A stretch of 64,000 bases of DNA from Minisyncoccota bacterium (GTDB taxonomy: Bacteria > Patescibacteriota > Minisyncoccia > JAHIHE01 > JAGLIN01): contig JAQVBZ010000001.1 of the NCBI GenBank assembly GCA_028690055.1, forward strand, positions 20,452-84,451, written 5' to 3'. Both the position numbers and the translations under genes were made by a program. The number at the start of each line of letters is the position of its first letter. Within the stretch, counting starts at the first letter, position 1. The notes beneath the pieces were generated by a model. That model was not told where the DNA came from and ran no database searches. It saw only the letters and a list, made by a program, of their open reading frames with translations. Shown in pieces: positions 6,249 through 62,562 of the stretch.

Positions 6249-9101
6249 ATGAAGAATCTAGCGGGGTTATCCTTAATTCTCTTATTGGTGTTAGTATGTT
6301 TGGCGCCGTCTTCTGTCTGTCGTGTGGCAAACGCCGGTACACTTATTACGGAGGAAAGATTTGAAAACAGTATCAGCTCTTACTGGTACAGGGCAATGAA
6401 TAATTATTCCTATTCCGGTACTTACATTACCTCTCCTTTTGTTTCGCCTACTCATGCTTTTCGTATCGAACTGCATAGCAGCGATTCAGAGGTGGAAGGA
6501 GGCATGCGTGCGGAGTTGGAAAGCGAACCGGAAACGCGGCTGCAGGAGCGCACTTACAATTTTAATATTATGCTTCCCGGCGGAGGGGCGGATGATTATG
6601 CGTTGGATAATTACGATTGCGATGAAATTATTGCTCAATGGCATAACAATCCCGATTCCGGGGAAGATTGGACCATGCCACCACTGGCCCTTACTACAAC
6701 TACAAACGAGAAGGGGGAGGGGCGCTATGTACTTCTGAATCTATGGGATGATGCTGCTAAGTCCACGACGGAAGAAATGAAATCGGAAGGCAAAATCAGT
6801 TATTACGATCTTGGTTCGTATACGGAGGATAAGGGTAAATGGGTTAAATGGACTTTTCATGTCAAATGGGGGTGGCTTTCTTCTCATAACACTATTTTGG
6901 AAGTATACAAGAACGGAAGTTTGATCTTTAGTCATAACGGATATCCCAACACCACTAACGATCAAAAGGGTGTGAATCAACAGTTTGGAGTTTATAAATG
7001 GGAATGGGATGGCAGCGGACCCGATTCCAAACTATCGAAGCGCGTAATCTATTTTGATGATGTTAGCGTATATCAGGGATGGGAGGCTCCCGGTTCCACT
7101 TCTAACCCTCCCGCTACCACTTACACCGTCACAGTAAATAACGGCCTAGGCGGAGGAACCTATTCGGCGGGAGAAGAGGTGACTATTGTAGCTAATCTGC
7201 CTGTTTCCGGCAAAGCTTTTGACAGGTGGACAGGAAGTACTCAATATCTTGATAGCATCACTTCATATACCAATACTTTCACCATGCCCGCATCAAACAT
7301 ATTCTTTACTGCAACCTATCAAAACATAGCCCCCGCCACCTACGACCTCACTGTCACCAAAGGCTCCGGTGACGGAGCATACACTACAGGCACGCAAGTG
7401 ACTATCACCGCCAACACTCCCGCTCCCGGCAAGGTATTCGACAAATGGACAGGCGGTACTTCTAGTATAGCCAGCACGACATCATCGACCACTACAGTCA
7501 CGATGCCATCTGCGGATATCACTTTAATTGCCAATTACAAAGATGCCCCCAAGTATACTCTGACAGTAGCAAACGGTACCGGCGACGGCTCATACGCCCA
7601 AGGCGCGGAAACAGTGATCACCGCCGACACTCCCGCCACCGGCAAAGTCTTCGACAAATGGACAGGCAGTACCACCTACATCTCTAGCACGATATCACCA
7701 ACCACTATCGTAACGATGCCAGCTTCATCCATTACCCTCACTGCCACTTACAGAGATTCCGATCTTCTTGATCCTTCTACCAGCTTCCTGATGATAGGCT
7801 ACGGCTCCGGTGACGGTGCTTACCCTGTGGGTACACAAGTTACCATCACCGCCAATGAACCTGCCAAGGGATTGGTCTTTGACAAATGGACAAGAGACAC
7901 TGAATACGTTTCAGACATATACAGCACGACACCTACAGTTACCATCCCCGATCACGGCATCATCCTTGTTGCTTCATACGAGAGATCCGATGATGAGACT
8001 TTCAGACTGGTAGTATCCGGTGGTACCGGAGGAGATGATTATCTCCCCGGCACAGAAGTCACCATCACCGCCGACACTCCCGATACCAACAAAGTCTTCG
8101 ATCAATGGGTGGGAGACATCAGCCATATCGATGATACCGGCAAAGCCATAGCTATCGTAACTATGCCTGAAGAAGACATTACTCTGGTTGCTACATACAA
8201 AACCATAAACCAAGGAGAATACCTGCTTACCGTAAGGAACGGCACCGGTAACGGTTCTTATCTTCCCGGCTCTGAAATCATTATCAAAGCCGACACTCCT
8301 CCTACCGGTAAGATCTTCAGCAGATGGACAGGCAACACCTCTTACATCAACGACATCGATTCAGCCACTGCCACCGTTACGATGCCGTCGCTATCTATCA
8401 CCTTGACTGCCACCTACAAAGACAAAAACAATAATGGCAATTACCCCGACGGTACTCTCATCAAGCTCCCGGATTCTCCCAAGATATATGTCATCACCAA
8501 TGGAGAAAAGAAATGGATATCTACCCCTGAACAATTCGAACAACTGGGATATCAATGGACAGAGGTACAGACTGTCACCGAAGAGATATTGAGTACTCTT
8601 GAAGACATCGAAGATAATCTGATCCGTCTCATAGGAGACTTCAAAATCTATCTGGTTACCAACGGTACCAAACGTCACATCCCCAACCCCGATGTCTTCC
8701 TTAACTACGGTTTCAATTGGAACGATGTCAAAGAAGTGGATGAATCGATTTTCAACAAATACAAAGATGTCTATCTCATCAGAGAGTCAGGCAAAGAATC
8801 CGTATACTACCTGACCCCCGCGGGCATCCGCAAGCACATCCCCACCACAGACATCTTCAACTCTTACGATGACAAATGGGAAGATGTCCAAATCATTTCT
8901 CAAAACGAGATGAATACTTATACTCTTTCCAATCTTGTCAGGTTGGAAGGAACAAATGACGTTTATCTTATCGAGGGCAATATCAAAAGACGTATCCCCG
9001 ATCCAACAATCTTCAATAAATACAAGTTTAATTGGGAATACGTTCTTTCTGTAAATCAAACAGAATTCAACTGGTACCAGAATGGGGGAGAGTTGAGGTG
9101 A
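6249..9101 (+). CDS. Secreted multidomain protein: signal peptide, concanavalin-like jelly-roll (polysaccharide-lyase/glucanase-like) domain, ~10 Listeria-Bacteroides (Flg_new/InlB-B-type) repeats, 4 C-terminal ~55-aa Trp-containing repeats
   Basis: Signal peptide MKNLAGLSLILLLVLVCLAPSSVCRVANA. The N-domain (res ~40-280) has the block ILEVYKNGSLIFSHNGYP...QQFGVYKWEW...VIYFDDVSV typical of jelly-roll lyases. Repeats of ~80 aa follow with consensus YTLTV.NG.G.GSY..G..VTI.A..P..GKVFDKWTG.T.Y.....S.T..VTMP...ITLTATYK. The C-terminus has 4 repeats with pattern IYLVTNG.KRHIP.P.VF..YGFNW..V. Confidence 0.8.
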   Translation: MKNLAGLSLILLLVLVCLAPSSVCRVANAGTLITEERFENSISSYWYRAMNNYSYSGTYITSPFVSPTHAFRIELHSSDSEVEGGMRAELESEPETRLQERTYNFNIMLPGGGADDYALDNYDCDEIIAQWHNNPDSGEDWTMPPLALTTTTNEKGEGRYVLLNLWDDAAKSTTEEMKSEGKISYYDLGSYTEDKGKWVKWTFHVKWGWLSSHNTILEVYKNGSLIFSHNGYPNTTNDQKGVNQQFGVYKWEWDGSGPDSKLSKRVIYFDDVSVYQGWEAPGSTSNPPATTYTVTVNNGLGGGTYSAGEEVTIVANLPVSGKAFDRWTGSTQYLDSITSYTNTFTMPASNIFFTATYQNIAPATYDLTVTKGSGDGAYTTGTQVTITANTPAPGKVFDKWTGGTSSIASTTSSTTTVTMPSADITLIANYKDAPKYTLTVANGTGDGSYAQGAETVITADTPATGKVFDKWTGSTTYISSTISPTTIVTMPASSITLTATYRDSDLLDPSTSFLMIGYGSGDGAYPVGTQVTITANEPAKGLVFDKWTRDTEYVSDIYSTTPTVTIPDHGIILVASYERSDDETFRLVVSGGTGGDDYLPGTEVTITADTPDTNKVFDQWVGDISHIDDTGKAIAIVTMPEEDITLVATYKTINQGEYLLTVRNGTGNGSYLPGSEIIIKADTPPTGKIFSRWTGNTSYINDIDSATATVTMPSLSITLTATYKDKNNNGNYPDGTLIKLPDSPKIYVITNGEKKWISTPEQFEQLGYQWTEVQTVTEEILSTLEDIEDNLIRLIGDFKIYLVTNGTKRHIPNPDVFLNYGFNWNDVKEVDESIFNKYKDVYLIRESGKESVYYLTPAGIRKHIPTTDIFNSYDDKWEDVQIISQNEMNTYTLSNLVRLEGTNDVYLIEGNIKRRIPDPTIFNKYKFNWEYVLSVNQTEFNWYQNGGELR

Positions 9102-11574: not shown

Positions 11575-11685
11575 GCGGAGTAGCGGGATTCATCCCGCGC
11601 GGTTGTCACAAGCCGAAAAATGCGTCGTATATCTTTCACTATTCTCTCGTGGGATAACAGCGCAGACTAAAGTCTGCTACTCCAT
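11575..11685 (+). repeat. MITE-like family 1, copy 1 (~110 bp, ends GGAGTAGCGGGATTCATCCCGCGC ... GCGCAGACTAAAGTCTGCTACTCCA)
   Basis: Terminal inverted repeat GGAGTAGC/GCTACTCC. Each end has its own hairpin (GCGGGAT..ATCCCGC; GCAGACT..AGTCTGC). It lies 30 bp past the ychF stop. Confidence 0.8.
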
Positions 11686-11714: not shown

Positions 11715-12788
11715 CTATATCTTAAATTCAATCACATCTCCATCCTGTACAATATATGTCTTACCCTCGGTTCGCAGCAGTCCTTTTTCCGCCGCATTTC
11801 CTAGTGAACCCGCCTCGATCAGTTTCTGCCAATTGATGACGCTGGCGCGGATGAATCTTTCTTCAAAGTCGCTATGGATGGCACTGCCGGCTTGGGGCGC
11901 GGTCGAGTCTTTTTTGATAGTCCAGGCTCGGGTCTCGTCTGTACCGGTGGTAAGGAAGGTAATGAGACCGAGCAGGTCGTAGCAACGTGTGGTTAAATCT
12001 TCCAGTGAAGAAACCTTCGGATCCAGCTCCGCTTCTGCTCGAAAAACTTCCGCTTCTTCGGCTTCGAGTTCTCTCAGCTCCAGTTCGAATTGGATAGGGA
12101 GGAAAATCTTATTTTTGATATCGGGCAAGATGGCGTCTAGTTCGGCAGCTTTCTGCTCTTCGCTGACATTGACGACGTAGAGGACCGGCTTGTTGGTGAG
12201 GAGTTGCAGTTCTTTCACAACTTCTTTTTCTTTCTCATCCAGCACTACGGAGTTGGCCATCTTTTCGTCTTCAAGCGCGACTTTGTATTTTTCCAAGACT
12301 GCCTTGAGCGTGATAGCCTTTTTATCTCCCGAACGCACTTCTTTCTCTATTTTAGAAAGCCGTTTGTCTACCGTGTCCAAATCCGCCAAGATGAGTTCGG
12401 TATTGATTACGTCGACATCATGCGCGGGGTCTACTTTGTCGTGCACGTGTGTAATCTTGCCACTCGGAAATCCTCGGACGATGTGCGCGATCATATCTAC
12501 CTCGCGGATGTTGGCGAGGAATTTATTTCCCAGTCCTTCACCCTCGTGCGCGCCCTCGACCAGTCCGGCGATGTCTACGAACTCTATCGCGGTGGGAATG
12601 GTCTTGGCGCTCTTGGAAAACACGGTCAGTTTTTCCAATCTCTCGTCAGGCACTTTAACGATGCCCACATTAGGGTCGATGGTGCAGAAAGGGTAGTTCG
12701 AGATGTCGATCTCTTTTTTGGTCAGGGTCTTGAAAAGCGTGGACTTGCCGACATTGGGCAGTCCGACGATGCCTACTGAAAATCCCAT
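11715..12788 (-). CDS. ychF: Ribosome-binding ATPase YchF (Obg-family GTPase)
   Basis: G1 motif GIVGLPNVGKSTLF, TGS C-terminal domain, 357 aa. Confidence 0.9.
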   Translation of the reverse strand: MGFSVGIVGLPNVGKSTLFKTLTKKEIDISNYPFCTIDPNVGIVKVPDERLEKLTVFSKSAKTIPTAIEFVDIAGLVEGAHEGEGLGNKFLANIREVDMIAHIVRGFPSGKITHVHDKVDPAHDVDVINTELILADLDTVDKRLSKIEKEVRSGDKKAITLKAVLEKYKVALEDEKMANSVVLDEKEKEVVKELQLLTNKPVLYVVNVSEEQKAAELDAILPDIKNKIFLPIQFELELRELEAEEAEVFRAEAELDPKVSSLEDLTTRCYDLLGLITFLTTGTDETRAWTIKKDSTAPQAGSAIHSDFEERFIRASVINWQKLIEAGSLGNAAEKGLLRTEGKTYIVQDGDVIEFKI

Positions 12789-16695: not shown

Positions 16696-16736
16696 AAGAC
16701 TCTATGAGTGATATTAATAAGAGCATTACTAGCTCA

Positions 16737-16774
16737 AGGGTACAAGATATTGTGCCCCTACAATTCGAAATTAC
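16737..16774 (+). repeat. Family-4 palindromic core AGGGYACAAGATATTGTGCCCCTACAA
   Basis: Same core occurs at 15724-15757 (rc), 37011-37037 (rc), 39164-39196 and 54490-54530. Confidence 0.7.
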
Positions 16775-16872
16775 AAAATGAACCTTTTATTGCATAGAGG
16801 AAGGCAAGGTGGTGATATATAATTTTACTATCCACATCAAATCAAATTAATTTACTATAAGCTGTAAAAAAT

Positions 16873-27301: not shown

Positions 27302-27406
27302 TGAAATGACTAATGTCTAACTTATGACGATATACAAGGCTTACCCGGGTATTATAATCGGTTTTTTCCGTTTTGTATAGACCCGGACGTAGTCTATCCC
27401 CCCGAC

Positions 27407-27548
27407 TGTCATTTCGAAATGAGGCGCTACGATTGAGAAATCTGGGGATAGTAGAAAACGCTTATCATTATATTTATAAAAATAATGATATCTGCGCGTC
27501 ATATATTTCCCAGATTCCTCAGGCGAGTACGCCTTTCGGGATGACAAA
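27407..27548 (+). repeat. MITE-like family 2, copy a (~140 bp; TIR TGTCATTCCGAAATGAG ... TTTCGGGATGACA)
   Basis: Terminal and sub-terminal inverted repeats (GATTGAGRAATCTGGG / CCCAGATYCCTCAG). Confidence 0.75.
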
Positions 27549-27586
27549 ATCCCTAGGGTACGAAATAATATAAAAGAAAACCCTTG

Positions 27587-31374: not shown

Positions 31375-33840
31375 ATGAAAAAAAACCTGTTCGCGGTGGC
31401 GGTAATGGCCGGTGTCGGTCTGTTCGCTCTCTGTTCTCCGGTCTCGGCTTCAATTTCCGAATGTGACTACTCGAAAACTTATGACGATGTCAAGACTCTT
31501 TATGTCGCTCGCGATGGCAGCGGAGATTACAATTGTGACGGTACTGATGATGAAGTGGAAATCAACGCAGCTTTTCAGGCGGTTAAAAATAGCGGCGGAG
31601 CGTATGACTCTGTTTTTTTGAAATCCGGAACTTACATTGTCGGTACCAAAATCAATATGGTGACCAATTCGGTTTTTGAGGGGGACAAGGATGCAATTCT
31701 CAAACTGAAAGATCAGGCAGACTGGGAGGTTAATGTGCCGATGATCGGCTCTACAGATATACATACTGACAATGTAGAAATAAAATGTTTCGAGGCGGAT
31801 ATGAATTATGATGGTAACTATTCAACCGATGCTTATAGCTGCCTGGCGGGCTGGGGTGATGAATGCGTTGCGGGCGATTTTACCTGCTGTGAGGCTTACA
31901 GTACTTTCCGCACCACAGGCAAGGGATACTACAACGTGGCCGGTTTCACTTACGGAAAAAATTACTCGATGCACGATATGTATCTGCACGATGGATTGGG
32001 AGACGGACTTAATATTTTGCATAGTAGCAGTGTAAAATTTTATGACAATTTGATTTACAAGATGGGGCACGAAGGATTGTACGTGAAATATTCGGATATT
32101 GCCGAAGCATTCGGTAATGTGATTACCAATCGTACCAATTCGGGTCTGCGCGCGGATGATACCAATCATGTTTCTTTCCATGATAATGACATCACAGCTT
32201 TTGATCATTGGAGCGCCGGGGGGCCGGGCATCGAAATCGTTAAAGATGACAGGTTCGTGACTCAGATGAATGATATCCAGATTTACAACAATTATATCCA
32301 CGGCACTTACGGTCCTGGTATCTGGATTATTGCCAGTGGCACTAATCATACTGCGGCGGATCTTGCAGCAAATATCCATCACAATATTTTCTCTGGAACG
32401 GGTATCAATCCTACCATCAATTGGACGGCGGGGATTCTGACTTCCGGTTTCTATAACCTTACGGTAGAGAATAATGTTTTTGATAAAGTTTATAATGGTA
32501 CCTTACTTGTGTCGAATGCAATTGCGACACCTCCTGCCTCGTCAGGGTATGTGATAACTTTTCGCAATAATACCATTACCGGTACTCAGCCCCAGCGCAA
32601 CACCACGAGTAACGGTTATGGTATTATCAATCTGCTTTCCGGCACACACACGGTGAATTCCGAGAATAATTGTTTCTATGATAATTATGCGGGAGATTAT
32701 TACGGTAACGTGAACAGTGTGGATGATATTCATACCGATCCGCTTTATGCCGACGCTGCTGATCAAGATTACCACCTGCAGTCTGCCTGGGGCAGATGGA
32801 ATGGTTCATCTTGGGTGAAAGACGCGGAGACTTCTCCTTGCATCGATGCGGGATACGCTGCTTCCGATTATTCTCTTGAACCTGAATCCAACGGTGGCAG
32901 GATAAATATCGGCCGCTACGGCAACACCGTCGAAGCCAGTCTTTCTTTCACACCTGTTTTAATCCCTGTGGCTACGACCTACGACCTTACGATAAATGGA
33001 GGATCCGGTTCCGGTTCATATGTGGAAGGTCAAAACGTAGTTATTATCGCTGATGCTTCAGCTACAGGCAAAGTATTTGACAAATGGATAGGCGACACGA
33101 CTTATGTTTCAAATGCAACTGCTGCTATCGCTAATGTGACAATGCCGGCAGACGGCGTCTCTCTGACTGCAACTTATAAAGATGTTTATTACAATCTTAC
33201 TGTTGATGGTGGTACCGGTTCAGGATCGTATATTTACGGCCAGCAAATCAGTGTTACTGCTGATGCTCCGAGTGCCGGAAAATTATTCGACAAATGGACG
33301 GGAGATATTTCTTATATCACCAGCGCCATTTCAGCCGCTACCACTGTGACGATGCCGACAGGCGCCGCCTTTCTTACCGCGACTTACAAGGATGCTCCGG
33401 TTACGACCTACGACCTTACGGTCAGTGGCGGTTCGGGCTCCGGGTCTTATGTTTCAGGAACCAAAGTGACCATTACGGCTGCTACTATTACGGGCAAAGT
33501 GTTTGTCGGATGGATAGGAAGCACTTCTTATCTTTCCAGTACCACTGCTGCGACCGCTACGGTGATTATGCCGGCTAAGGCGATTACGTTGACCGCCACC
33601 TACAAAACGGCTTACTACCTCACTATTTACAACGGTTCCGGTTCCGGATGGTACGCTGCCGGTACTAAGGTGACTATCGCTGCCAATGCTCCGGCAGTGA
33701 GGCAAGTTTTCTATAGATGGACAGGCAGCACCAGCTACGTGGCGAGGATCACTTCCGCCACCACTACGGTTACTATGCCGAGTAAATCCATCTCTCTTAC
33801 TGCGACTTATAGTACTTCAAGGTCTTGGTATTATAGATAA
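31375..33840 (+). CDS. Secreted right-handed parallel beta-helix (pectate-lyase-fold) protein with 5 C-terminal Listeria-Bacteroides (Flg_new-type) repeats
   Basis: Signal peptide MKKNLFAVAVMAGVGLFALCSPVSA. beta-Helix coils with N/H/D-rich PbH1 repeats (LHDGLGDGLNILHSSSVKFYDNLIY..., VSFHDNDITAF, IHHNIFSG). It ends with the typical DYHLQS...SPCIDAG. Five repeats follow: YDLTINGGSGSGSYVEGQNVVIIADASATGKVFDKWIGDTTYVSN...VTMP...LTATYKD. Confidence 0.8.
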   Translation: MKKNLFAVAVMAGVGLFALCSPVSASISECDYSKTYDDVKTLYVARDGSGDYNCDGTDDEVEINAAFQAVKNSGGAYDSVFLKSGTYIVGTKINMVTNSVFEGDKDAILKLKDQADWEVNVPMIGSTDIHTDNVEIKCFEADMNYDGNYSTDAYSCLAGWGDECVAGDFTCCEAYSTFRTTGKGYYNVAGFTYGKNYSMHDMYLHDGLGDGLNILHSSSVKFYDNLIYKMGHEGLYVKYSDIAEAFGNVITNRTNSGLRADDTNHVSFHDNDITAFDHWSAGGPGIEIVKDDRFVTQMNDIQIYNNYIHGTYGPGIWIIASGTNHTAADLAANIHHNIFSGTGINPTINWTAGILTSGFYNLTVENNVFDKVYNGTLLVSNAIATPPASSGYVITFRNNTITGTQPQRNTTSNGYGIINLLSGTHTVNSENNCFYDNYAGDYYGNVNSVDDIHTDPLYADAADQDYHLQSAWGRWNGSSWVKDAETSPCIDAGYAASDYSLEPESNGGRINIGRYGNTVEASLSFTPVLIPVATTYDLTINGGSGSGSYVEGQNVVIIADASATGKVFDKWIGDTTYVSNATAAIANVTMPADGVSLTATYKDVYYNLTVDGGTGSGSYIYGQQISVTADAPSAGKLFDKWTGDISYITSAISAATTVTMPTGAAFLTATYKDAPVTTYDLTVSGGSGSGSYVSGTKVTITAATITGKVFVGWIGSTSYLSSTTAATATVIMPAKAITLTATYKTAYYLTIYNGSGSGWYAAGTKVTIAANAPAVRQVFYRWTGSTSYVARITSATTTVTMPSKSISLTATYSTSRSWYYR

Positions 33841-37059: not shown

Positions 37060-37168
37060 GTGGAGTAGCGGGATTCATCCTGCGCTGCTATCCCAAGCCA
37101 TAAAGTCATTGCATATATTCTTCCTGTCCGCATTGGACAACCGCGCAGACTGAAGTTCTCTACTTTGT
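37060..37168 (+). repeat. MITE-like family 1, copy 2 (3' end degenerate)
   Basis: GTGGAGTAGCGGGATTCATCCTGCGCTGCTATCCCAAGCC...CGCGCAGACTGAAGTTCTCTACTTT. Confidence 0.75.
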
Positions 37169-37241: not shown

Positions 37242-37360
37242 TGGAGTAGCGGGATTCATCCCGCGCTGCTGTCCTAAGCCTTTAAATCCTACGCCATCGC
37301 GCATTCCATTCGCATCGGACAACTGCGCAGGTTAAAACCTGCTACTTCGTGTATTTTCGC
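37242..37360 (+). repeat. MITE-like family 1, copy 3
   Basis: ATGGAGTAGCGGGATTCATCCCGCGCTGCTGTCCTAAGCC...GCGCAGGTTAAAACCTGCTACTTCG. Tandem with copy 2, 75 bp apart. Confidence 0.8.
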
Positions 37361-39061: not shown

Positions 39062-40926
<1,865 letters not shown>

Positions 40927-40992: not shown

Positions 40993-41134
40993 TGGAGTAG
41001 CGGATTTCATCTCTCGCTGTATTGTATGGAGTAGCAGGATTTATCCCGCGCTGCTTCCCAAGCGGAGAAATACGCCGATTATACTTGTACTTTTCGCATA
41101 GGATAGCCGCACAGACTAAAGTCTGCTACTCCAT
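40993..41134 (+). repeat. MITE-like family 1, copy 4 (with a duplicated, degenerate 5' arm)
   Basis: Partial arm at 40993-41025, then a full copy GGAGTAGCAGGATTTATCCCGCGCTGCTTCCCAAGC...GCACAGACTAAAGTCTGCTACTCCA. Confidence 0.8.
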
Positions 41135-41368: not shown

Positions 41369-41474
41369 GTGGAGTAGCGGGATTCGTCCCGCGCTGCTGT
41401 CCCAAGCCGAGAAATGCATCAAATACGTTTTTCCCGTATGAGATAGCCGCGCAGACTAAAGTCTGCTACTCCAT
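41369..41474 (+). repeat. MITE-like family 1, copy 5
   Basis: GTGGAGTAGCGGGATTCGTCCCGCGCTGCTGTCCCAAGCCGAGAAATGC...GCGCAGACTAAAGTCTGCTACTCCA. Confidence 0.85.
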
Positions 41475-52815: not shown

Positions 52816-52946
52816 AAATCTGGGTAAGGATTTGATGGTCATTGTATAATGATTAATCCTTAGCTTTCCAATCTGAATTAGCAGCTTTGATTATTTCTTT
52901 CCGTATTCGGTACGCAGTAGTGCACTTATTGCGCGACCCATCCTAT

Positions 52947-53086
52947 TGTCATTCCGAAATGAGCGGAGCGATTGAGGAATCTGGGAATAATACTAAGCGC
53001 TTATAACATTTCATATAAACATATCACTAGAAGATTCTTCCGCATTTCCCAGATCCCTCAGTCGAGTACGATTTTCGGGATGACAA
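52947..53086 (+). repeat. MITE-like family 2, copy b
   Basis: TGTCATTCCGAAATGAGCGGAGCGATTGAGGAATCTGGGAATAAT...CCCAGATCCCTCAGTCGAGTACGATTTTCGGGATGACAA. Confidence 0.85.
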
Positions 53087-53102
53087 AGTTATATATGTTA
53101 TT

Positions 53103-53890: not shown

Positions 53891-54104
53891 AATATTCTCA
53901 CCTCCTTTCTTGATTTCAATAAACATTCCGACCTTTGTGTCACCATCTATATTGAATATATATTCATAATGACTTTTCGTCAAGTTTTCTGATCGAATAT
54001 AAAACTGAATGAAAAATGTCGCCAAGGAAAAAGTAATCGTTCAATCTGAAGGGGGGGGCAGGTACGCAGTAGCGCGCCTACAACGTGACACAGCCTCCCC
54101 TATA

Positions 54105-54245
54105 TGTCATTCCGAAATGAGCTACTGCGACCCCGGAATCTGGGAATAATGCTATGCGCTTATAATATTTTATATAAATATAACGCCAGAAGATTTTCCC
54201 GCATTCCCCAGATCCCTCAGTCGAGTACGACTTTCGGGATGACAA
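54105..54245 (+). repeat. MITE-like family 2, copy c
   Basis: Same orientation as copy b, ~85% identical. Confidence 0.85.
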
Positions 54246-54261
54246 GGTTGCGTTATGTCTC

Positions 54262-54395: not shown

Positions 54396-54535
54396 GTTGT
54401 CATTGCGACGACGCGGCAATCCCGAGGCTATGCGAAACAACCCGTATGTAACTACTGGTGAAATATAGTAACAGGATTGCCACGTCGGAAAGGGCACAAG
54501 ATATTGTGCCCCTACAGTTCGCAATGACAAGTCGT
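54396..54535 (+). repeat. Family-4 extended element (TIR TGTCATTGCGA...TCGCAATGACA) with palindromic core
   Basis: See 39062-39200. Terminal TTGTCATTGCGACG / CGCAATGACAAG inverted repeat. Confidence 0.7.
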
Positions 54536-56574: not shown

Positions 56575-58419
56575 ATGGATAACGATAAGAAGAAAAAAAT
56601 ACAAGGATTTCGTGGCGGTTCTCCGGGAAGCATCGGAGTCGGCCCGGTATCCAAAGCGAAAGATTTTAAGAAAACCTCGCGCGCTTTTATCAGCTATCTG
56701 AAACCGTACTGGGGAAGTTTTATTTTGGTGCTGGTTTTGGCGATTTTGAGTACACTCTTTTCTTTGCTAGGGCCGAAAATTCTCGGGGATATGACGGACA
56801 TCGTCACTCGTGGAATCTTTGGCGCGGAAGGGGGAATTGATTTCGATGCGATTGCTCGCACAGGCTATCTTTTGGTGGGCTTATATGCCTTAAGTGCCAT
56901 CTTCGGATATATGCAAGGTTGGATAATGGCGGGAGTTTCACAGAAGATCACTTACGCCTTCCGGCGCGATATCTCTCACAAGATTTCGAAATTGCCCCTC
57001 AGCTATTTTGATCGGCACGAGAAAGGTGACATTATCAGCCGGGTAACGAACGATGTGGAAGCCGTCAGCCAGAATCTCAATCAGAGTTTGGTGCAAGTCG
57101 TCACTTCAGTAGTGTCCCTTGTCGGTATTTTGGTTATGATGATTTCCATCAGTGTCCCGATGACATTAATCGCGCTTTTGATATTGCCGGCGAGTATGAT
57201 ATTTATCCGTTTGGTCATGAAGAAATCCCAGCGTTTTTATCAGCGTCAACAAAGTTCTTTGGGAGAGATGGATGGTCATATCGAAGAGATGTTTTCCAAT
57301 CACGCTATCGTCAAAGCTTACAACGGCGAAAAGGATTCTGTCCGTCGTTTTAGTGGTATCAACGAGCAGCTCTACGATAGCGGTTGGAAAGCGCAATTCA
57401 TGTCGGGGCTTATGATGCCCGTAATGCACTTCATCAGCAATCTTGGCTATGTCGCTGTGACATTGGTGGGAGGCTATCTCGCCATACAAGGAAGGGTGAC
57501 TATCGGTGGCATCCAGGCATTTCTCCAATATATGAATCAATTCACCCAGCCCATCAGTCAGGCCGCGAACATCGCCAATGTTTTTCAGTCGACCATCGCG
57601 GCAGTGGAACGGATATTCGAATTCATTGATGAGCCGGAAGAAAGGATGGAAAAAAATACTTTGCCCGCGCCAAAAACTATTGCTGGTCGGGTGGAATTCA
57701 AGGATGTCTTTTTCGGTTATGATCCGCAAAAGCCGGTCATCCATGATTTTAGCGCGAGCATCGAACCGAAGCGCAATGTGGCTATCGTCGGTCCGACGGG
57801 GGCAGGCAAGACGACTCTCGTCAATCTTCTGATGCGCTTCTATGATATCGACCGCGGCACTATCACTGTCGACGGAGTGGATATCGCCAAGATGAAACGC
57901 CAAGATGTGCGACGTATGTTCGGTATGGTGCTTCAAGATACGTGGCTCTTCAGCGGTACGATAGCGGAGAATATCGCTTTCGGAAAACCTGATGCTACGC
58001 GCGAGGAAATCATCGCCGCAGCCGAGAAAGCTCACGTCGATCATTTCATCCGTACGCTATCGCTGGGTTACGACACAGTTATCGCCGATTCAATCGATAA
58101 TATTTCCGCCGGTGAAAAACAGCTTCTAACTATTGCCCGTGCCGTCTTGGCTGATGCGCCTATGCTCATCTTAGACGAGGCGACCAGCTCGGTCGATACC
58201 CGCACCGAGAGCCTCATCCAATCCGCGATGGAAAAGCTCACTCATGACCGTACCAGTTTCGTCATCGCGCACCGCCTCTCGACCATCAAGAACGCAGATT
58301 TGATTCTAGTGATGAAAAGCGGAAACATTATCGAGCAGGGGAAACATCAGGAGCTTTTGGAAAAAGGAGGTTTCTATGCAGTGCTTTATAACAGTCAGTT
58401 TGTTGGAGCGAGGGGTTAA
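56575..58419 (+). CDS. ABC exporter, fused permease/ATP-binding subunit (subunit 2)
   Basis: Walker A GPTGAGKTTL, signature ISAGEKQLLTIARAV, Walker B LILDEATSSVD. Confidence 0.9.
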   Translation: MDNDKKKKIQGFRGGSPGSIGVGPVSKAKDFKKTSRAFISYLKPYWGSFILVLVLAILSTLFSLLGPKILGDMTDIVTRGIFGAEGGIDFDAIARTGYLLVGLYALSAIFGYMQGWIMAGVSQKITYAFRRDISHKISKLPLSYFDRHEKGDIISRVTNDVEAVSQNLNQSLVQVVTSVVSLVGILVMMISISVPMTLIALLILPASMIFIRLVMKKSQRFYQRQQSSLGEMDGHIEEMFSNHAIVKAYNGEKDSVRRFSGINEQLYDSGWKAQFMSGLMMPVMHFISNLGYVAVTLVGGYLAIQGRVTIGGIQAFLQYMNQFTQPISQAANIANVFQSTIAAVERIFEFIDEPEERMEKNTLPAPKTIAGRVEFKDVFFGYDPQKPVIHDFSASIEPKRNVAIVGPTGAGKTTLVNLLMRFYDIDRGTITVDGVDIAKMKRQDVRRMFGMVLQDTWLFSGTIAENIAFGKPDATREEIIAAAEKAHVDHFIRTLSLGYDTVIADSIDNISAGEKQLLTIARAVLADAPMLILDEATSSVDTRTESLIQSAMEKLTHDRTSFVIAHRLSTIKNADLILVMKSGNIIEQGKHQELLEKGGFYAVLYNSQFVGARG

Positions 58420-58434: not shown

Positions 58435-58539
58435 GTGGAGTAGCGGGATTCATCCCGCGCTGCTGTCCCACTCGAAAAATATGTCGTATACGTTCTGCCT
58501 GCGTTGGACAATCGCGCAGGCTAAAGTCTGCTACTCCAT
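58435..58539 (+). repeat. MITE-like family 1, copy 6 (starts 16 bp after the ABC transporter stop)
   Basis: GTGGAGTAGCGGGATTCATCCCGCGCTGCTGTCCCACTCG...GCGCAGGCTAAAGTCTGCTACTCCA. Confidence 0.85.
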
Positions 58540-58625: not shown

Positions 58626-58768
58626 TGTCATTCCGAAATGAGCTACTGCGATTGAGGAATCTGGGAACAATATTATACAATGGCAGAATTACTTTTATAA
58701 ATATAACGTCAGAAGCTTCTTCCGCATTTCCCAGATCCCTCAGTAGAGTACAACTTTCGGGATGACAA
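58626..58768 (+). repeat. MITE-like family 2, copy d
   Basis: Full-length copy, followed by a family-3 module at 58785-58862. Confidence 0.85.
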
Positions 58769-58784
58769 GGTAATATTATGCCGC

Positions 58785-58862
58785 AGGAATTGTAGAGACG
58801 CTGATTTATCGCATTTTTTTTGGCGAAGTAATCCATACTTTTGTGTGGATTTTTGTTTGGCG
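58785..58862 (+). repeat. Family-3 module, copy c
   Basis: TGTAGAGACGCTGATTTATCGCATTTTTTTTGGCGAAGTAATCCATACTTTTGTGTGGATTTTTG. Confidence 0.7.
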
Positions 58863-59219: not shown

Positions 59220-60437
59220 ATGTCTTCAGTGCGTAAGAATATAATCAGGACATTCTTTTATATCGGTCTATTTTTTATTGTCATAGGTAATGTCTTCGGT
59301 TCGAAAGATTATCTCTTGCAGCAAATAGAACATGTCGTTTCAACCTCAAATGAAATATCCGACGTAGATTTTCCGAGCCAGCTGGAAAATCCTAAAACTG
59401 TAGATTTCCAGTGGTCCTACAGGGGCAAAGAATACTCTATCAAGGAAACATTTTACGGAAACATTGACGCATATTACAAAGAACATCCGGTCAAGGCTCT
59501 TTACGAAGGAAGAGCGGAAGATGAATATTACGAAAATTTTGCTCTCAACCTTGAACATGAAGAAGATCCGACTATAAATGATGTAGTAAACGATATAAAG
59601 TCAGAGGGGGTAAAAAATAATCTTTCAGAAGAAGAAATCTTGGAGCTGGTAATATCCTTCGTGCAAGATATTCCATATGATGATGCAAAATATGATCTGA
59701 TTGAAAGTGCGAGCGGTAATGTTGAAGAATCTTGGACCAGGTTTCCATATGAAGTCCTATATGACAATACCGGTATTTGTACCGATAAATCTATGCTTAC
59801 CGTGGCCCTGGTTGAAAAGTTGAATTATGGGACGGCGTTATTCGGTTTTGACAAAAAAGAGCATATGGTCCCGGCCATACAATGTACACAGGAATATTCG
59901 TCTTATTATTCGGGGTATTGTTATACGGAAGTTACGAACGTCGGATTTAAAATCGGCGATTCAACCGCTGGCGATATTGAAGGCGGCAAGGCTGTCGCAA
60001 AATCCTCTATAGTATACACGGGAGGTAATCAGTTATTGGTACCCGATGCGGTTACGCCTGAAGACTTAAGCATCTATGGTAAAAGGAGTGGGGTAATATA
60101 TGATGGCGTGATTGAAACCGTCGACACTATGCACAAGATAACTGAATTGGAAAATCAGCTGCATTTTATGAGTTTGGATGTGGAAAATGCAAAAAAGGAT
60201 TATCTGGAATTCGTGGTAACTGTGGAGGATTATAAAAAACAGGCGGATGATGCATACAATAGGCATCTGATTAAAAAGGACGCTTCATCCTATAACAGCT
60301 ACCTAGCTTTGCATAAGCAGTACGGTGTTGCATATTCTCAATATGAAGGTAAGGTAAAAATATATAACGACAGGGTCAACGAATACAACAACTTGGCGAA
60401 TGAGTATAATAGTTTAATCAAATCTTTTTATAATTGA
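59220..60437 (+). CDS. Hypothetical membrane-anchored protein, possible transglutaminase-like cysteine-protease core, C-terminal coiled coil
   Basis: N-terminal TM (FFYIGLFFIVIGNVF). GICTDKSMLTVALVEKLNYGTALFGFDKKEHMV is reminiscent of the Cys-His core of transglutaminase-like proteins. C-terminal heptad-rich region. Confidence 0.4.
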   Translation: MSSVRKNIIRTFFYIGLFFIVIGNVFGSKDYLLQQIEHVVSTSNEISDVDFPSQLENPKTVDFQWSYRGKEYSIKETFYGNIDAYYKEHPVKALYEGRAEDEYYENFALNLEHEEDPTINDVVNDIKSEGVKNNLSEEEILELVISFVQDIPYDDAKYDLIESASGNVEESWTRFPYEVLYDNTGICTDKSMLTVALVEKLNYGTALFGFDKKEHMVPAIQCTQEYSSYYSGYCYTEVTNVGFKIGDSTAGDIEGGKAVAKSSIVYTGGNQLLVPDAVTPEDLSIYGKRSGVIYDGVIETVDTMHKITELENQLHFMSLDVENAKKDYLEFVVTVEDYKKQADDAYNRHLIKKDASSYNSYLALHKQYGVAYSQYEGKVKIYNDRVNEYNNLANEYNSLIKSFYN

Positions 60438-60506
60438 TATGATCGTGCAGCTTGTTGCGCAAGCGATTGTTGTACACTCCTTATTCCACGGTAATATCTT
60501 TACATT

Positions 60507-60644
60507 GTCATTCCGAAATGAGCGGAGCGATTGAGGAATCTGGGAATAATACTATTCACTTATAATGTTTTATATAAACATAAAGGCAGAATACTCTCCC
60601 GCATTTCCCGGATCCCTCAGATGAGTACATCTTTCGGGATGACA
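60507..60644 (+). repeat. MITE-like family 2, copy e
   Basis: Nearly identical 5' arm to copy b (TGTCATTCCGAAATGAGCGGAGCGATTGAGGAATCTGGGAATAATACTA). Confidence 0.85.
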
Positions 60645-60728
60645 TAGTCATATCGTGTTGTGGAATCGGGGATCTGAGTTTTGCCTTCTTTGCCATCTTG
60701 AAAATATTAAATAAATTAAAAAAATCCC

Positions 60729-61193
60729 ATGGTACTTTCTTCTCAAGCAATCAAATCAGCAGTGCAAAAAAGCGAATTGGACATCACGCCCTTTGATGAA
60801 AAAAATCTGAAGCCGGCAAGCTATACTTTTACACTTGCGGCAAGATTATTGATTCCGAAAAAAGTTTCTCTGATTGTTATGGGCGGCGAGCAGGAATACG
60901 AAGAAGTTGTGATGGGATTGGACGGATTCGTTTTGCAGCCGGGGGATTTTGTACTCGGGTTTACGGCGGAGCATCTCGCGCTCAAAAATAATTATGCCTG
61001 CTTTCTTTCTGCACGCGGCTCATGTGCGCAGGCAGGACTTTCGGTCCTCCTCAGTTCCAGCTTTGCCGAGCCAGACACGGATAACCCTATAATCTTGGAA
61101 ATCCATAACGCCGGAAAGTCTCCGATCAGGTTGGAAGCGGGAATGAAGATTGTTAAGGGAATATTTATGCCGGTAGAGGAATACTCGGAGTAG
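60729..61193 (+). CDS. dcd: dCTP deaminase / dUTPase-superfamily protein (short, 154 aa; 3' end supplied by a MITE)
   Basis: Blocks QPASYTFTLA, PGDFVLGFTAEHLAL, SARGSCAQAGLSV, IILEIHNAGKSPIRLEAGMKIVKGIFMPV match the dcd/dut beta-barrel fold. The stop codon TAG lies inside family-1 copy 7. Confidence 0.65.
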   Translation: MVLSSQAIKSAVQKSELDITPFDEKNLKPASYTFTLAARLLIPKKVSLIVMGGEQEYEEVVMGLDGFVLQPGDFVLGFTAEHLALKNNYACFLSARGSCAQAGLSVLLSSSFAEPDTDNPIILEIHNAGKSPIRLEAGMKIVKGIFMPVEEYSE

Positions 61194-61272
61194 CAGACTT
61201 TAGTCTGCGTGCATTTATGGTAACGTTATTATCGCATGGGACAACCGCGCGGGATAAATCCCGCTACTCCAT
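61187..61272 (-). repeat. MITE-like family 1, copy 7 (reverse orientation, ~86 bp, internally shortened)
   Basis: GGAGTAGCAGACTTTAGTCTGCG...GCGCGGGATAAATCCCGCTACTCCA is the reverse complement of the family-1 ends. Confidence 0.8.
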
Positions 61273-61401
61273 TGAAAGTACTTTCTAAGTCCGGAGATAG
61301 TCGTGTTTTGCGGTGCTTCGTTTAGGTTTTATAAAACCGCTTAACTTTGATAGAATTATAAACACTGAGTCGGACATTCTTAATTTCCAATAAATATTAT
61401 T

Positions 61402-62562
61402 ATGCAAAACAAGAATCAGTTGCTTAAAATCTTTTCTTTCCTCCTGCTTGCCCTGGTCGTGCGTTTTTTTGTGGTAGATAGAATCTTGCTCGAAACAGAT
61501 AGTTTATGGATGCAGGCAGTGGCAATCGGCGTTATTTTTGCTATCGGTATCGGCTATATTTTTCGCGGCACCGCCAAGGTGATTGAGGAAACCACTGATG
61601 TTTTGAAAGATCGGACGGGACTGGCCGGCGGTTTTTTGCAGGCGCTTGGGACTGCATTTCCGGATATGATTATCGGGGTGATGGCGGCTATCGTTTCGTT
61701 GCAAGTCAGAGATAGTGATTATGCCCGCGCAATCAATCTCGCTATCATCGCTGCAGCTTCGACTTTCGGTTCGAATATTTACAACATCATCCATGCGGCT
61801 TGGTGCGTGTCTCGGCAAAACTTGGCCAATAAGATAGATAAGTCGGTGATGATGTTTCCGGGCTTCAAATCCGGGGGAAACGTGAGGCCTCTTCGCGAAC
61901 ACACTACCAAGCCTTCAGCGGTGGAAATCGATAATGCCATCAGTATTCTGACTGCGCTGACTCTGCTGACAGCATTTGTAGCTGTCACGATGGTGCTCTT
62001 CGGCCAAGTCAAAGACGCCAGATTGGAAACGTCCGGCGAGCTTTATCAATTGATCAAACCGGTCGGAGTCGTACTCTTTGTCCTGTGCGCTTACATACTC
62101 TATTATTTCCGCAAGAACGAACGTCCCGAATCGTTGGACAAGAATGTCATCAAGGCTAAGCGTTATTATTCAGATCTCAGCACTTCGCGGATCTGGCTCG
62201 ATTTACTTTTGTCCGGTGCCGCTATCTTACTCACGGCAGAAGGAATGGTCCGCGCCATAGAAATTTTTTCGGATCTGACAAACACCCCTTTCGTTATCAC
62301 GGGTATCTTGGCGGGACTCATCGGCTGTTTCGGAGAAATGATGGTTGTGCATAATTTTTCCATCAACCCTAACGGGCGTATCAGCGACGCCATCTCCGGC
62401 GTGGCTATGGATAACATCGTCACGACTCTGGGCGCGTCCATCGTTGCCATAATGGGCGGTATCTTTTTGGGAGGCAACGCTCTTATCCTCATCTTCATCA
62501 TTATTTTGGCATCCAACACCGTGCTCGTCGAACAGATCACTAAATTGAGAAATAAGCTGTAG
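61402..62562 (+). CDS. Ca2+/cation antiporter (CaCA, YrbG-like) family membrane protein
   Basis: Two alpha-repeat-like segments (GGFLQALGTAFPDMIIGVMAAIVSL and FVITGILAGLIGCFGEMMVVHNFS), ~10 TM helices. Confidence 0.5.
   Translation: MQNKNQLLKIFSFLLLALVVRFFVVDRILLETDSLWMQAVAIGVIFAIGIGYIFRGTAKVIEETTDVLKDRTGLAGGFLQALGTAFPDMIIGVMAAIVSLQVRDSDYARAINLAIIAAASTFGSNIYNIIHAAWCVSRQNLANKIDKSVMMFPGFKSGGNVRPLREHTTKPSAVEIDNAISILTALTLLTAFVAVTMVLFGQVKDARLETSGELYQLIKPVGVVLFVLCAYILYYFRKNERPESLDKNVIKAKRYYSDLSTSRIWLDLLLSGAAILLTAEGMVRAIEIFSDLTNTPFVITGILAGLIGCFGEMMVVHNFSINPNGRISDAISGVAMDNIVTTLGASIVAIMGGIFLGGNALILIFIIILASNTVLVEQITKLRNKL

Follow-up and report, generated by a model that had tools for sequence, protein, structure and literature searches.

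The TAG stop of a short DCD-like gene lies in a REPIN terminus in a Minisyncoccota bacterium

REP sequences with a GTAG tag form inverted doublets known as REPINs, the non-autonomous partners of REP-associated tyrosine transposases (RAYT, TnpA-REP), and have been described together with RAYT genes in Pseudomonas, E. coli and Stenotrophomonas (PMC3733652, PMC3116915, PMC3479197, PMC8266576). In 2013, Di Nocera et al. reported that GTAG REPs give TAG stops to flanking ORFs, and REPs are generally held to stabilise or terminate upstream transcripts (PMC3733652). Here we describe such a stop in a CPR genome. The stretch of DNA analysed, 64 kb from a Minisyncoccota bacterium (the window), contains a dcd-like gene whose stop codon overlaps the end of a small inverted repeat. 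This arrangement had been taken for a MITE that shortened a dCTP deaminase. Our comparison points to a REPIN that arrived at the stop codon of a gene that was already short.

The repeat at the end of the dcd-like gene

The dcd-like ORF ends in ...MPVEEYSE and, as the initial annotation had recognised, its TAG falls within the first bases of a repeat copy, more exactly inside GGAGTAGC, the invariant terminus of the element (Table 1). The element, copy 7 of its family, is closed at 61263–61270 by GCTACTCC, the reverse complement of GGAGTAGC. An internal spacer deletion leaves it ~20 nt shorter than the 101–107-nt copies, and it is inverted relative to the other six copies. Its outer boundary possibly lies 1–3 nt further out on each side (61184/61186 to 61271/61273); the end first assigned at 61272 takes in two weakly conserved flank bases. 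All seven copies in the window have GGAGTAGC...GCTACTCC ends by alignment, the right end of the copy at 37062 being degenerate, and the terminal 26-mer has five matches in the window against zero expected from shuffles. An Rfam scan of 60400–61500 gave only sub-threshold snoRNA noise.

Table 1 Coordinates of features in the window and, where a locus label (L) is given, in related contigs
Feature	Position	Strand	Remarks
dcd-like gene	60729..61193	+	154 aa; complete core fold; apparently natively lidless family
Extra codons TAC TCG GAG (Y-S-E) relative to orthologue ...MPVEE*	61182..61190	+	probably derived partly or wholly from element and junction
TAG stop = TAG of the REP's GTAG tag	61191..61193	+	inside GGAGTAGC (61187-61194)
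REPIN copy 7	61187..61270		84 nt; two inverted GTAG REPs and spacer
Gene-proximal REP	61187..61210	+	GGAGTAGC + hairpin AGACTTTAGTCT + GCGT
Distal REP	61247..61270	-	GGAGTAGC + hairpin GGGATTTATCCC + GCGC
TGA after element	61273..61275	+	candidate native-stop remnant, or G61274 completing TA|G
REPIN copy	58437..58537		18 nt downstream of stop of gene 56575-58419; typical extragenic placement
REPIN copy	41371..41472		
REPIN copy	41028..41132		preceded by partial REP fragment 40994-41027
REPIN copy	37243..37348		right hairpin AGGTTAAAACCT, compensatory variant
REPIN copy	37062..~37166		right end degenerate
REPIN copy	11577..11683		32 nt from stop of minus-strand gene 11715-12788
Second repeat family, copies	60504-60653, 27406-27555, 52945-53094, 54104-54253, 58626-58840, about 16670		
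RAYT gene	L024:1893-2414		Y1_Tnp match, above NF047646 cutoff
RAYT gene	L030:12-545		Y1_Tnp match, above NF047646 cutoff
RAYT gene	L045:3001-3534		P0059 homologue (L045-L050)
RAYT gene	L051:710-1234		P0057 homologue (L051, L052)

Each end of the element consists of YGGAGTAGC, a 12-nt palindrome and GCGC, the hairpin stem measuring 7 bp. Scanning the GTDB species genomes with the left unit returned 32 loci: four related CPR bins account for 31, and the remaining one comes from an unclassified bin. With the window included, the heads (YGGAGTAGC plus hairpin) number 103 and show at least 20 hairpin variants, among them GGGATTYATCCC, AGACTTTAGTCT, GAACTTTAGTTC, AGGTTTYAACCT and GGGTTTTAACCC. Across the 102 tabulated heads GGAGTAGC is invariant, and the base 5′ of it is a pyrimidine in all but one (101/102), so that the element reaches at least to 61186. 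The stem is conserved as a structure: in 80 distinct heads, picked by their flanking anchors alone and not by pairing, the 7 bp are 96.6% paired, four of the seven pairs show changes in both partners, and covariation scores 0.503, compared with 0.209 in shuffles (0 of 500) and at most 0.16 for slid partners. When folded, the doublet is closed by pairing of GGAGTAGC with GCTACTCC and contains a central stem besides the two small hairpins. Doublets and solo heads are both present in L010–L041, and solo heads are common there. The repeat is mostly extragenic, and a stop supplied by a REP is an exception in this lineage: only 1 of the 103 heads ends a long ORF. A second candidate (L012, +2570, 121 open codons) was rejected because its reading frame runs antisense to a 759-aa gene.

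The codons preceding the stop also differ from those of relatives. An orthologue on a related contig (L042) ends ATG CCG GTG GAG GAA TAG (MPVEE*), where the window reads ATG CCG GTA GAG GAA TAC TCG GAG TAG (MPVEEYSE*). The MPVEE* tail recurs in P0045, and P0041 has MPVDE*. The native gene might already have ended in ...EYSE-TAG, with the element inserted just after a tag-like target and supplying nothing, and two observations lend this some colour: Y1 transposases (IS200/IS605) insert next to short specific motifs, and the TAG of L042 also follows GAGGAA, which loosely resembles GGAGTAG. Such an abutment would, however, require a pre-existing 8–9-nt match. Since GGAGTAGC recurs at the copy ends with its pyrimidine at −1, the tag is best counted as part of the element, and the EYSE tail occurs in no element-free homologue among the 54 whose tails were compared. 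We therefore consider it improbable that the element contributed nothing.

We consider it more improbable still that this is a classic MITE of the TIR type, descended from a DDE insertion sequence, although its copies are several, short and without coding sequence, and their termini are inverted repeats of 8 nt (perfect) and about 34 nt (imperfect). No consistent direct repeat flanks the seven window copies or those of L010–L041, as a target-site duplication would; the flanks share only the Y at −1 and a T/C-rich lead, and no insertion signature at the target is consistent among copies. Solo half-elements, too, are common, and each end carries a GTAG tag with a covarying hairpin. In about 320 kb of sequence we saw no autonomous IS with the same termini, and the sole transposase that adjoins arrays of these units is a Y1 transposase, a RAYT scoring above the NCBIfam cutoff. 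Because the GTAG tag sits at the hairpin foot and REP arrays flank RAYT genes in related genomes, we assign the element, on its sequence features, to the REPINs of a RAYT system. The label 'MITE' is then only loosely apt, in the broad sense of a small non-autonomous element with inverted repeats.

Several other repeats were observed in the window. The full REPIN at 41028 directly follows a partial REP head (40994–41027; GGAGTAGCGGATTTCATCTCTCGC...), an arrangement suggestive of nested or abortive insertion. A second, unrelated family of ~150-nt repeats has the inverted ends TGTCAT(T/C)CCGAAA... and ...TTTCGGGATGACA; one of its copies precedes the dcd start by 75 nt, and the gene thus has a different repeat element on either side. 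A third, short repeat is built around the palindrome GGGCACAAGATATTGTGCCCCTACA (16736–16776, 39167–39207 and 54490–54530), and related sequence occurs at about 745–775 of L001, downstream of the dcd orthologue. Finally, tandem coding repeats of ~215 nt (7143–8420 and 33001–33813) are common to the ORFs 6249–9101 and 31375–33840 and probably encode Ig-like or Flg_new-type domains of surface proteins.

A short DCD-fold family without a lid

The encoded protein matches Pfam DCD (PF22769) over profile positions 1–150 of 153, with 89 bits against a cutoff of 27. Its AlphaFold model, obtained with the family alignment as input, has a mean pLDDT of 95.6, a last β-strand at residues 140–148 and a disordered end (residues 151–154, pLDDT ~53). 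In Foldseek comparisons the model matches the dCTP deaminase cores of M. tuberculosis, B. halodurans and E. coli with TM 0.90–0.94; the core fold is thus common to this protein and to the canonical dCTP deaminases and bifunctional dCTP deaminase-dUTPases (1xs1, 2qxx, 4xjc), at 24–30% identity. Solved dCTP deaminases reach 177–193 aa owing to a C-terminal lid, and the initial annotation was right that the present protein, 23–39 aa shorter, has none. The chain stops six residues beyond the last core strand, as it does in most of 54 homologues, and the ~25–40 aa that follow in canonical Dcd are missing family-wide.

We then compared the active site. In the alignment to 2j4h/1xs1, E. coli S111, R115 and E138 correspond to G97, Q101 and E124. 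Ser111, Arg115 and Glu138 are the residues that we take to catalyse deamination in E. coli Dcd; only the equivalent of the last is kept. G97 and Q101 are near-invariant across the CPR DCD-like family, which also has an invariant E114-P115 where the 'IDPG' motif has D-P. The protein scores 76.2 bits against the NCBIfam equivalog dCTP_deam (TIGR02274), below the cutoff of 92.8. Given the sub-cutoff score, the replacement of two of three catalytic residues and the lack of a lid, the protein does not appear to be a bona fide Dcd. As a lidless DCD-fold family in which two of the three deamination residues are replaced, these Paceibacteria proteins carry the annotation 'dCTP deaminase' doubtfully. 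Archaeal dcd-like dUTPases (Thermococcus pacificus 8y1w, P45 9ln0, Sulfolobus tokodaii 2zdc) have a DCD-type fold and a similar length of 143–156 aa, while their sequence similarity to the CPR family is weak (E 1e-6) and TM is 0.73–0.79; the identities of 8Y1W, 9LN0 and 9LN3 are those of the Foldseek descriptions. By analogy, short or lidless members of the DCD superfamily of ~150 aa can be working enzymes.

Two further observations concern the family. Its genes often lie near a NUDIX gene (L002, L007, L043, L053). A second DCD-like protein of 150 aa (P0011), 72% identical to the first, carries the locus tag PHX30_06040 from the same MAG and may be a paralogue or come from a second strain in the bin.

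A homologue search over 5.8 billion proteins yielded 55 homologues from Paceibacteria/CPR metagenome bins, most of them 148–156 aa long. After the last strand motif, KG[IV]F, 39 of 54 homologues have a tail of 4–5 residues and the window protein one of 8, which makes it ~3 residues longer than the modal orthologue. At the DNA level, no REPIN is present at the 3′ end of the gene in the orthologous loci L001–L006, L042, L043 and L044. The L001 orthologue (P0002) is 83% identical to the window protein. L002 (P0004) and L003–L006 (P0009) share the ABC-ABC-x-DCD synteny of the window and have REP heads elsewhere on the locus, none at the gene end. In L042 the orthologue (P0006, 77% identical) is followed by the gene for a 386-aa membrane protein, 73% identical to the downstream gene of the window, and the 3.7 kb of this contig contain no REP head. 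The long-tailed homologues P0018 (...FRLL) and P0019 (...IRLL) were considered as further REP-derived ends and rejected, there being no REP at either. As homologues are equally short without the element, the missing lid is not due to the insertion and appears, from this comparison, to be an old trait of the whole family.

These results overturn the proposal that a MITE truncated or replaced the native 3′ end: relatives have the same length and the same end position without an element, alignment to element-free orthologues finds no residue lost, and the expected remnant of an original 3′ end is absent, since none of the three frames of 61271–61400 holds a lid-like remnant or lost C terminus. 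Nor does the gene look like one heading for inactivation or tolerating the loss of its end. Its dN/dS is 0.07–0.12 against three orthologues, a rough figure because dS is near saturation; at ~0.1 it indicates purifying selection. An insertion inside a longer dCTP deaminase gene that removed or replaced the lid, leaving a truncated and perhaps decaying enzyme, would explain the stop inside the repeat and a lidless protein 23–39 aa below the solved enzymes, but it is refuted almost entirely by the equally short element-free homologues, the absent remnant, the dN/dS, the complete predicted core fold and the persistence of the same arrangement in a 90%-identical allele.

Insertion, age and possible effects

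We consider it very probable that a natively ~150-aa lidless DCD protein was encoded here, that a REPIN inserted into the native stop or right at it, and that the TAG of its tag now serves as the in-frame stop, with the fold unchanged. Entry at or within the native stop is suggested by L042, whose GAG GAA TAG stands against GAG GAA TAC TCG GAG TAG in the window. The REP terminus GGAGTAGC would have put its own TAG in frame, so that translation ends two to three codons later (MPVEE to MPVEEYSE); ~3 disordered residues would have been appended to an intact folded core, and the arrangement would be neutral or nearly so.

The exact insertion point, like the native stop, is a reconstruction, as the closest element-free relatives are only 77–83% identical and no true empty-site allele was found; a scan of metagenome contigs with the last 26 nt of the gene had no match at all, the window itself included. 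Removing 61184–61273 (90 nt, by hand) restores GAG GAA TA|G AAA G and a protein of 151 aa, which would place the insertion inside TA|G. Removing 61185–61272 (88 nt) gives ...EEY followed by TGA, 152 aa, and removing 61182–61272 joins GAA to TGA. Three different boundaries each regenerate a stop, and hence none of them is proven. The TGA behind the element, or its G61274, is suggestive only as a remnant of the native stop. Cutting out exactly the 84-nt core was also tried as the native state and rejected, because it opens a 170-aa ORF with an unrelated tail.

The insertion can be dated relative to its alleles. Contigs identical to the window across the junction come from three other samples. 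A diverged allele (P0097, on L053/L054) shares the REPIN, its site and the synteny; it encodes a 90%-identical protein with the end ...VQVGEYSE*, carries the REPIN at its full 106 nt and has TAT as Tyr codon in place of the TAC of the window. Between L053 and the window (L053:29-1883 vs 60729–62562), identity is 90.6% over the dcd gene, ~90% over the REPIN and 86% over the downstream spacer, whereas the gene after the spacer matches at 1160 of 1161 positions. From this difference, with dcd and spacer at 86–91% and the next gene all but unchanged, we infer that the two are recombinant alleles within one population, with an implied breakpoint between the REPIN spacer and the 386-aa gene, and that the insertion predates their divergence. 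Its presence in the 90%-identical allele indicates an old and tolerated insertion that persisted through ~10% sequence divergence. The L053 copy retains GGAGTAG, but its hairpin next to the gene is degraded (AGACTTCAATCT, then GAGC), a pattern that, as a single case, fits selection on the stop codon and not on the REP.

Effects on the stability of the transcript 3′ end or on translation can be envisaged. The REPIN stem–loop may provide the dcd transcript with its 3′ hairpin; where the window has the REPIN hairpin, a plain G+C-rich, terminator-like one occurs in L042, and a scan of the window for intrinsic terminators gave no site at the element or beyond it. Liang, Rudd and Deutscher (Mol Cell 2015) reportedly found expression in E. 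coli to be lowered, via ribosome stalling, by a REP lying no more than ~15 nt from a stop; if this applies here, dcd expression could be reduced.

RAYT genes in relatives and comparison with known systems

RAYT genes were located in relatives with a tblastn probe and then examined with Pfam and NCBIfam (Table 1). Those of L024 and L030 score 99 and 103 bits against NF047646 (REP_Tyr_transpos, cutoff 80). Arrays of GGAGTAGC REPs lie beside the RAYT gene or on both sides of it in L024, L030, L045 and L051/L052. A few genes downstream of the RAYT, a histidine kinase is encoded in L024, L045–L048 and L051/L052, followed by a response regulator in L045–L048 and L051/L052. The 64-kb window itself contains no RAYT gene, and the only tie of L051/L052 to its organism is that L052 and the window-identical contig L009 come from the same sample. 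Judged from these loci, the RAYT locus of the CPR genomes is probably conserved, single-copy and vertically inherited. Our literature search found no paper linking RAYT to Patescibacteria/CPR, and a REP-RAYT system in a CPR host may be new. One may go further and see here the first REPIN-RAYT system in Patescibacteria, its single RAYT held in several genomes at a conserved locus upstream of the histidine kinase and response regulator, which would speak for long vertical co-inheritance under extreme streamlining, with the TAG at dcd perhaps exapted as a stop; we offer this wider reading tentatively and doubt it somewhat more than we credit it.

As originally posed, the finding matters little, in that no enzyme is truncated and TAG stops from REP tags have already been published. 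For annotation it is a useful warning: the short DCD-like ORF runs into a repeat and yet is no pseudogene. Two by-products deserve to be retained, namely a REP-RAYT system with dozens of copies in ultra-small CPR genomes and a conserved lidless DCD-fold family in Paceibacteria.

Among small inverted repeats, the Correia elements of Neisseria and other MITE-like repeats likewise have termini that give stops, promoters or processing sites to their neighbours. Correia elements differ in their TA target duplications, their terminal sequence and their lack of any RAYT association, whereas the window repeat shows no target duplication. The resemblance to the GTAG REPs and REPINs of Pseudomonas, E. 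coli and Stenotrophomonas is closer. Common to both are a short hairpin, its stem varying by compensatory changes and its foot bearing the GTAG tag, and inverted doublets with GTAG outermost (the 'HH' heterodimers of Di Nocera) around a spacer with complementary ends, besides singlets. In both, most repeats lie outside genes and near their 3′ ends, REP arrays flank RAYT genes (for the present repeat, in related genomes), and the TAG of the tag can serve as the stop of a flanking ORF. Unlike the known hosts, the present one belongs to the CPR/Paceibacteria lineage and has a very small genome; its REPs have a tag extended to YGGAGTAGC and short 7-bp stems, and the RAYT proteins of the related genomes are only ~23% identical to an E. 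coli-like probe. The REP-donated stop of the dcd-like gene is thus a known phenomenon, an ordinary instance in an unusual host.
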